The notes under the pieces: generated by a model
The model's database searches: none
Told to the model about the DNA's origin: nothing
What the model saw: the letters and a program-made list of their open reading frames with translations, nothing else
Program-made: the position numbers and the translations under genes
Shown: one piece after another, positions 2,553 through 3,746 of the stretch
How positions within the stretch are numbered: position 1 is the first letter of the stretch
Layout of the letters: every line of letters starts with the position of its first letter
Assembly: GCF_003334385.1 (NCBI RefSeq)
Contig: NZ_QOWN01000091.1
Origin: Escherichia coli
GTDB lineage: Bacteria; Pseudomonadota; Gammaproteobacteria; Enterobacterales; Enterobacteriaceae
Strand: one strand, 5' to 3'
DNA length: 3,746 bases

Positions 2553-3746
2553 GCTGACAAGGTTGTACAGGCGGGAGAAACCGTGAACGACGGAACACTG
2601 ACAAATCATGACAACCAGATTGTCCTCGGTACGGCCAACGGAATGACCATCAGTACCGGTCTGGAGTATGGGCCGGATAACGAGGCCAATACCGGCGGAC
2701 AATGGATACAAAATGGCGGTATCGCCAACAACACTACTGTCACCGGTGGTGGTCTTCAGAGAGTGAATGCCGGAGGAAGCGTTTCAGACACGGTTATCAG
2801 TGCCGGAGGCGGACAGAGCCTTCAGGGGCAGGCAGTGAACACCACTCTGAACGGCGGTGAGCAGTGGGTACATGAAGGCGGGATTGCAACGGGTACCGTC
2901 ATTAATGAGAAGGGCTGGCAGGCCATCAAATCCGGCGCAGTGGCAACCGACACGGTTGTGAATACCGGCGCGGAAGGGGGACCGGATGCGGAAAATGGTG
3001 ATACCGGGCAGACCGTCTACGGAGATGCCGTACGCACCACCATCAATAAAAATGGTCGTCAGATTGTGGCTGCTGAAGGAACGGCAAATACCACTGTGGT
3101 TTATGCCGGCGGCGACCAGACTGTACATGGTCACGCACTGGATACCACGCTGAATGGGGGGGGACCAGTATGTGCACAACGGCGGTACGGCGTCTGGCAC
3201 TGTTGTAAACAGTGACGGCTGGCAGATTGTCAAAAACGGGGGTGTGGCCGGGAATACCACCGTTAATCAGAAGGGCAGACTGCAGGTGGACGCCGGTGGT
3301 ACAGCCACGAATGTCACCCTGAAGCAGGGCGGCGCACTGGTTACCAGTACGGCTGCAACCGTTACCGGCATAAACCGCCTGGGAGCATTCTCTGTTGTGG
3401 AGGGTAAAGCTGATAATGTCGTACTGGAAAATGGCGGACGCCTGGATGTGCTGACCGGACACACAGCCACTAATACCCGCGTGGATGATGGCGGAACGCT
3501 GGATGTCCGCAACGGTGGCACCGCCACCACCGTATCCATGGGAAATGGCGGTGTACTGCTGGCCGATTCCGGTGCCGCTGTCAGTGGTACCCGGAGCGAC
3601 GGAAAGGCATTCAGTATCGGAGGTGGTCAGGCGGATGCCCTGATGCTGGAAAAAGGCAGTTCATTCACGCTGAACGCCGGTGATACGGCCACGGATACCA
3701 CGGTAAATGGCGGACTGTTCACCGCCAGGGGCGGCACACTGGCGGG
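2397..3746 (+). CDS. flu: Antigen 43 (Ag43) self-associating autotransporter adhesin, N-terminal signal peptide and part of the passenger domain; runs off the 3' end of the window; frame interrupted by +1 at a G8 tract (3156-3163)
   Basis: RBS AAGGAA (2384-2389) then ATG 2397. Translation MKRHLNTSYRLVWNHITGTLVVASELARSRGKRAGVAVALSLAAVTSVPALA-ADKVV... is the characteristic 52-aa extended Ag43 signal peptide, followed by beta-helix rungs (TLNGGEQWVHEGG..., NGG..TV repeats). Frame 0 ends at TGA 3213-3215; the Ag43 sequence continues without stops in the +1 frame from 3154 to 3746 (QYVHNGGTASGTVVNSDGWQIVKNGG...). Confidence 0.85.
3156..3163. repeat. G8 homopolymer inside the Ag43 coding sequence; site of the +1 frameshift
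   Basis: Eight consecutive G at 3156-3163, read directly. Seven G would give in-frame AAT GGG GGG GAC CAG TAT = N-G-G-D-Q-Y, which parallels the earlier rung TLNGGEQWVHEGG. Confidence 0.9.

Follow-up and report, generated by a model that had tools for sequence, protein, structure and literature searches.

We analyzed a 3,746-nucleotide stretch of Escherichia coli DNA (contig NZ_QOWN01000091.1 of assembly GCF_003334385.1; here called the window) that carries the 5′ part of the antigen 43 (Ag43) gene, agn43, the reading frame of which is broken at a run of eight G residues (G8). The gene had been recognized as agn43 from its letters before any database was searched, and sequence, neighbourhood and leader all agree with that identification: positions 78-3746 are 99.86% identical at the DNA level to annotated agn43 loci (2014C-4135, O145:H28 RM12761 and RM13516, A12 and NCTC9113). 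Three features describe the gene and its lesion:

2397 to 3215, plus strand: 5′ part of agn43, encoding the ESPR signal peptide and the AIDA-repeat passenger as far as Gly255, followed by an out-of-frame tail (NF033177 positions 1-256, E = 2e-154).
3156 to 3163, plus strand: the G8 homopolymer, which is the lesion; the closest relatives have GGGGGG-T here and rare in-frame alleles have G7.
3163 to 3746, plus strand: the agn43 passenger domain, continued in the +1 frame (NF033177 positions 256-452, E = 7.6e-92).

The G8 run is the longest homopolymer in the window, and its first six residues form the GGG GGG codons of Gly254 and Gly255. Translation from the ATG at 2397 leaves the Ag43 sequence immediately after Gly255 and continues through 17 out-of-frame codons (GPVCAQRRYGVWHCCKQ) to a TGA at 3213-3215, giving an open reading frame (ORF) of 272 amino acids that ends in ...TTLNGGGPVCAQRRYGVWHCCKQ. 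The earlier figure of 273 for this fragment holds as a number of codons, with the stop counted, and not as a number of residues. The frame from 3163 reads DQYVHNGGTASGTVVNSDGWQIVKNGG... / DQYVHNGGTASGTVV... and is free of stops up to the window end, the other two frames containing 7 and 8 stops. Because the first frame matches NF033177 over positions 1-256 and the second over positions 256-452, the gene carries a single surplus base and has lost none. Consistent with this, removal of one G yields 449 residues identical to the intact 1039-residue Ag43 of its nearest relative (NZ_CP027310) apart from Y256D. The frameshift that the sequence-only reading had placed at this run is therefore borne out both by the translations and by the split profile match. 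The ESPR and AIDA-type passenger that mark Ag43/Cah (NF033177) are present, near-identical intact homologues carrying PF13018 (ESPR) and PF16168 (AIDA); the uninterrupted frame expected of Ag43 is not, and both fragments score below the curated cut-off of 1200 bits. The window reaches position 452 of the 948 in the profile, and intact relatives carry PF18883 and PF03797 (AC_1 and Autotransporter) further on. A run of eight G is by itself unremarkable in a gene this rich in G and in glycine codons: 11% of mononucleotide shuffles of the agn43 portion contain one.

A fortuitous ATG at 3154-3156, directly ahead of the G run, starts an ORF in the downstream Ag43 frame (MGGDQYVH...). The ORF predicted from this ATG lacks a signal peptide and any obvious ribosome-binding site and so, to judge by its sequence, cannot rescue function. 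Gene callers would report two overlapping ORFs here (2397-3215, and 3154 onward) and not a pseudogene.

To place the G8 state we compared the run with other agn43 alleles. All of the close relatives (L002, L003, L012, L013, L015 and L017-L019; 98.8-99.9% identical) read GGGGGG-T-ACC, that is Gly-Gly-Tyr256, and the nearest of them, with 99.7-99.9% identity over 3.67 kb, all have G6-T-ACC. The window differs from these relatives by T to GG at the run and by three private single-nucleotide polymorphisms (SNPs; 1317, 1395 and 2184), with agn43 otherwise unchanged; from 3164 to 3746 its DNA is 100% identical to the nearest intact allele (L003). Intact in-frame G7-ACC alleles (Gly-Gly-Asp256) were found in three complete genomes (STEC434, SA53-3 and PS2Canimalfeces12, each with an annotated 1039-residue agn43 product) and in one metagenome contig. 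These confirm the earlier proposal that seven Gs would restore the frame as TLNGG-D-QYVHNGG. As the in-frame state, G7 holds for such other allele backgrounds, which are only 92-96% identical to the window; in the window's own lineage the in-frame state is instead G6 followed by T (Tyr256), two changes away. The G6-T interrupted run occurs in more than 1700 complete genomes, and run-extended forms make up about 5 of 1756 alleles with these flanks (at most ~0.3%). In more distant agn43 subtypes the two glycines are written GGC GGT, the next codon is TAC or AAC, and there is no homopolymer. In the comparison of tract length with related alleles that had been suggested from the sequence, the close relatives are G6-T, G7-ACC exists but is rare, and G8 was seen in no other sequence searched.

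Residue 256, which follows the conserved TLNGG, varies among natural intact alleles between Tyr (TAC, common), Asp (GAC, rare) and Asn (AAC), and because of this polymorphism a putative Asp256 precursor of the window allele would probably have been functional. Counting that precursor, the G7-ACC state is seen on at least three flanking haplotypes (at least two others), suggesting that the T to G extension of the run has either arisen more than once or been transferred in very short conversion tracts. A G7-ACC paralogue was considered as a possible donor of the T to G change through gene conversion; there are no flanking markers within ~80 nt on either side of the G run.

G8-ACC itself was not found in 5426 complete E. 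coli genomes, 100,044 GTDB species representatives, 241 M metagenome records or IMG/VR. Searches for the exact products returned no record of the 272-residue or 297-residue upstream ORFs, nor of four predicted 787-residue downstream products modelled on relatives, and no protein in the protein collection has the out-of-frame tail NGGGPVCAQRRYGVWHCCKQ joined to NGGG, the only matches being other broken-agn43 fragments. A search of the plasmid collection returned only mislabelled chromosomes, all of them G6-T.

While the G8 form is unique, indels at the same run are not. Three sequences carry G7-T (+1): S1-CAM-01-A, in which agn43 is also truncated C-terminally and is annotated as a pseudogene; W137; and one metagenome contig of 0.64x coverage. 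A Logan assembly, in a cluster of 12 sequences, has G5-T (-1), and a K-12-type allele has G6-A (+1) at the homologous run. The run lies at position 4197 of L001, 4028 of L007, 3359 of L009 and 1253 of L020 in the frameshifted loci, and a frameshift at it is also recorded in protein P0002. A G6-ACC reading of protein P0028, which would mirror the window around G7, was rejected, as its DNA has G5-T-ACC, the common allele after a -1 slip. We take the G run of agn43 to be a place where either slips or miscalls recur. Indel rates in E. coli grow exponentially as homopolymers lengthen, with G.C runs of 8 bp noted as outlier hotspots (PMC8510543); across Escherichia, pseudogenes correlate with homopolymer length (PMC8928963).

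In W137 (L007, NZ_CP163067), three consecutive genes between 3279 and 7327 (agn43, DUF905 and DUF932) are annotated as 'frameshifted' within 8 kb, a sign that the W137 assembly may be rich in homopolymer errors. Its G7-T should be counted as biological only with caution.

Taken together, these observations lead us to favour, by somewhat better than even chances, a real and very recent loss of agn43 through a one-base expansion of the G run that spans passenger-domain codons 254-256. We infer a history of two steps in this order. The common GGGGGG-T-ACC allele (Tyr256) would first have undergone T to G at the 3′ edge of the run, producing the in-frame G7 with Asp256, a residue tolerated in natural intact alleles; replication slippage on the longer run would then have added one G, taking G7 to G8. 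Polymerase-dislocation models provide a basis for the first step, in that transient misalignment at a run yields substitutions such as T to G at its edge. Translation from the ATG at 2397 would exit the Ag43 frame after Gly255 and stop 17 codons on, so that the autochaperone and the beta-barrel translocator would not be made, and no surface Ag43 would be expected from this copy whatever the state of the intact Dam/OxyR switch upstream. Reversion by a -1 slip would be possible in principle.

The expected fate of the fragment differs from that first proposed, which was secretion. Of the layout of intact homologues (ESPR-AIDA-AC_1-Autotransporter in Pfam) the fragment retains the ESPR signal peptide and is missing the autochaperone and the beta-barrel, and it is predicted to be periplasmic: in type Va secretion a passenger without its beta-barrel would stop in the periplasm. 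The 272-residue product would thus probably be exported that far and lost.

Point insertions and deletions that knock out ag43 and cah have been reported for O145:H28, the lineage to which the closest alleles belong (PMC9144400, Table S2; Carter et al. 2022), and RM13516 has one wild-type ag43 copy and one copy with a point insertion (PMC9144400, Table S2). The lesion in the window appears to be very young, since the rest of agn43 in the window is identical to intact alleles. Our best reading is an accidental loss of function in a frequently inactivated, dispensable adhesin gene and not a regulatory device.

Several observations weigh against this reading. The compound T to GG difference from the close relatives needs two events. 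The gene has no further substitutions, and so bears none of the evolutionary signature of relaxed constraint that would prove a real pseudogene, and its 3′ two-thirds lie outside the window (~2.1 kb beyond 3746). An assembly or base-calling error in the consensus is possible, and G8 is a singleton across the collections searched, just as an artefact would appear.

The choice between sequencing error and real frameshift, which the sequence-only reading had posed, was the right one. If the run was over-counted by one, the strain's own allele is intact and in frame, with G7-ACC (Asp256) the likeliest state and G6-T a less likely one; we hold such an artefact to be a serious possibility, at roughly one chance in three. 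It would account for a variant that is unique in all collections searched, for an agn43 otherwise identical to intact alleles and for a shift located in the longest homopolymer of the window, and some other +1 carriers do look to be of low quality, namely W137 with its three 'frameshifted' genes and the 0.64x metagenome contig. In contrast, the window shows no other discrepancy of this kind: its 21 other runs of at least five bases, a C7 and six 6-mers among them, are all identical in the nearest relative, L003. Over-counting the G6-T of the lineage would moreover give G7-T and not G8-ACC, so a genuine T to G difference is needed in any case. The 77-nt overhang of an insertion sequence (IS) at the left end of the window fits a short-read de Bruijn contig built at k = 77, in which consensus errors at 8-mers are rare, and real indel knockouts of ag43/cah are common in nature, O145:H28 included.

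The variable run length also bears on whether the tract could act as a switch. In a contingency locus, slipped-strand mispairing would turn agn43 ON at G7 and OFF at G8 or G6 at high frequency, on top of the Dam/OxyR switch. The tract sits in the 5′ quarter of a surface-adhesin ORF, as in classical poly-G contingency genes; its length is predicted to set the frame, with G8 OFF and G7 ON; lengths of G5, G6, G7 and G8 are all present in public data; and 8-long G.C runs are indel hotspots in E. coli (PMC8510543). We nevertheless regard a contingency locus as very improbable. A long tract is not conserved at this site, where the interrupted G6-T prevails and extended runs are confined to the few alleles counted above, and the GGC GGT of other subtypes, which has no run, does not point to selection for a mutable tract. 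Mismatch repair is proficient in E. coli, and switching at an 8-mer would be orders of magnitude slower than Dam/OxyR phase variation, for which the literature gives a rate of about 1e-3 per generation. Literature searches returned no case of phase variation of agn43 by tract length. It is conceivable that T to G extensions create, in some lineages, a G7 tract that toggles Ag43 OFF and ON by +/-1 slips, as a second, genetic layer of phase variation beneath Dam/OxyR; we would give this idea even less weight.

Least probable of all, in our judgement, is recoding, in which full-length Ag43 would be made by +1 ribosomal frameshifting (tRNA-Gly on GGG-GGG-GGA) or by transcriptional slippage on G8. 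The run would allow perfect +1 re-pairing of P-site tRNA-Gly(CCC), the codon in the 0-frame A site, GGA, is one that E. coli uses rarely, and homopolymer frameshift mutations are known to be slightly leaky. Against this, we found no stimulatory RNA structure downstream of the run (z = +1.2; folding as good or better in 181 of 200 shuffles), the shift site has no in-frame stop to serve as a pause codon, and the split-frame arrangement that a programmed-frameshift or slippage gene would share with its homologues is conserved in no other sequence searched. Known cases of transcriptional slippage in bacteria use longer A or T runs. At best the run would permit sub-percent leakiness and would not be a programmed device; a programmed frameshift was rejected for want of both structure and conservation. 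The slippage-dependent expression on top of Dam/OxyR that had been raised from the sequence alone likewise finds no support in these data: G8 is unique, extended runs are scarce, other subtypes have GGC GGT and no RNA structure follows the run.

Upstream of the gene, the regulatory region of agn43 is in place and comprises two annotated features:

2026 to 2396: agn43 leader region, upstream of the ATG at 2397.
2142 to 2378, plus strand: match to the Rfam IS102 (IsrC) RNA in the agn43 leader (RF00124; 72.7 bits against a gathering score of 46).

The three GATC sites that characterize the Dam/OxyR switch are present at 2144, 2163 and 2176, all inside the RF00124 match. With this triad intact the predicted switch would still be able to flip, but over a dead gene. 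A strong terminator-like hairpin of 12 pairs followed by T6 lies at 2338-2365, at the end of the RF00124 match and ~30 nt before the agn43 start codon; together with that match it is consistent with a prematurely terminated leader transcript. The private SNP at 2184 is an A to G change 5 nt downstream of the third GATC, where all close relatives have A.

The remainder of the window contains the end of a mobile element, a spacer and one intact gene:

1 to 77, strand not given: terminal 77 nt of an IS421/IS186-type IS of the IS4 family (100% match to IS421-family copies in 2188 genomes).
78 to 1150: AT-rich spacer, unannotated.
1153 to 2025, plus strand: intact YeeP-like GTPase family gene of 290 amino acids, supported by its ORF, by the annotation 'GTPase family protein' in relatives and by matches to Era/MnmE-type GTPases.

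The boundary between IS and island falls at 77/78, as fixed by aligning the window to two copies of the IS and to L003, a relative that lacks it; the IS terminus reads ...CAACCCTTAAGTTAGCGCTTATG. This junction is absent from the 5426 complete E. coli genomes and from the GTDB representatives. The window start sits exactly 77 nt inside a multicopy IS, and 77 is the default top k-mer of SPAdes; for these reasons the window is probably a whole short-read contig ending in a repeat. The final 77 nt at its other end are common to the L001-L003 alleles. The exact 290-residue GTPase protein is extremely widespread, occurring in 16,672 blocks of the protein collection, and the private SNPs at 1317 and 1395 lie inside its gene and are both synonymous. 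A GTPase gene precedes agn43 in CP4-44-type islands as it does here, and the window comes from a CP4-44-like E. coli island. The spacer also holds, about 120 nt before the start of the GTPase gene, a perfect 11-bp inverted repeat at 993-1033 (GAAGGAGATCA / TGATCTCCTTC, with 19 nt between the arms), with a GATC in each arm.

If the extra G is real, this copy of Ag43 would not be displayed, and calls of presence or absence would mispredict autoaggregation, biofilm and adhesin type; the case would also fit the known pattern of frequent ag43/cah inactivation. Should the extra G be an artefact, the lesson is that this run is a place where agn43 gets broken into two ORFs by assemblies and gene callers. 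As the run is hit repeatedly across allele backgrounds (G5, G7-T, G7-ACC and G8), it makes a handy marker site for curating agn43 pseudogenes, which were set aside in a survey of Ag43 diversity (PMC10058404). Beyond annotation the finding has little importance.

Among known systems, the programmed +1 frameshifting of prfB and the transcriptional slippage of Shigella mxiE resemble the window in having a downstream frame that is +1 from the start and, at the shift, a G-rich stretch; unlike them, the window lacks a conserved shift site, a pause at a stop codon and a stimulatory structure, and its split arrangement is not conserved. The poly-G/C contingency loci of Neisseria, Haemophilus and Campylobacter (surface-protein and lipooligosaccharide genes) likewise have a G homopolymer in the 5′ coding region that sets the frame, but their tracts are long, conserved and polymorphic within populations, whereas in agn43 the ancestral state is G6-T, extended forms are rare singletons and the run is missing from other alleles. 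Closest to the window is antigen 43 itself (agn43/flu, a type Va autotransporter under Dam/OxyR phase variation), which it matches in its 99.86% identity, the YeeP-like GTPase upstream, the three GATC sites, the IS102/IsrC match and the ESPR plus AIDA arrangement; it departs from antigen 43 in that the frame is broken at codon 256, the autochaperone and beta-barrel would be untranslated from the native start and, after repair, residue 256 would be Asp and not Tyr. As a lesion, it compares best with the point-indel knockouts of ag43 and cah in Shiga-toxin-producing E. coli, which involve the same gene family, the same allele lineage (O145:H28 is among the best matches) and the same class of single-base indel; loss-of-function point insertions and deletions in both genes are credited to Carter et al. 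2018 (AEM 84:e01739-17), as cited in PMC9144400. The particulars differ: G8-ACC is absent from complete genomes, the insertion in RM13516 is not G7-T with these flanks, and PMC9144400 does not single out this G run. Thus, while the exact G8-ACC state is unrecorded, it brings no new biology, and the window would add one more allele to an already known class of frameshifted agn43/cah genes.
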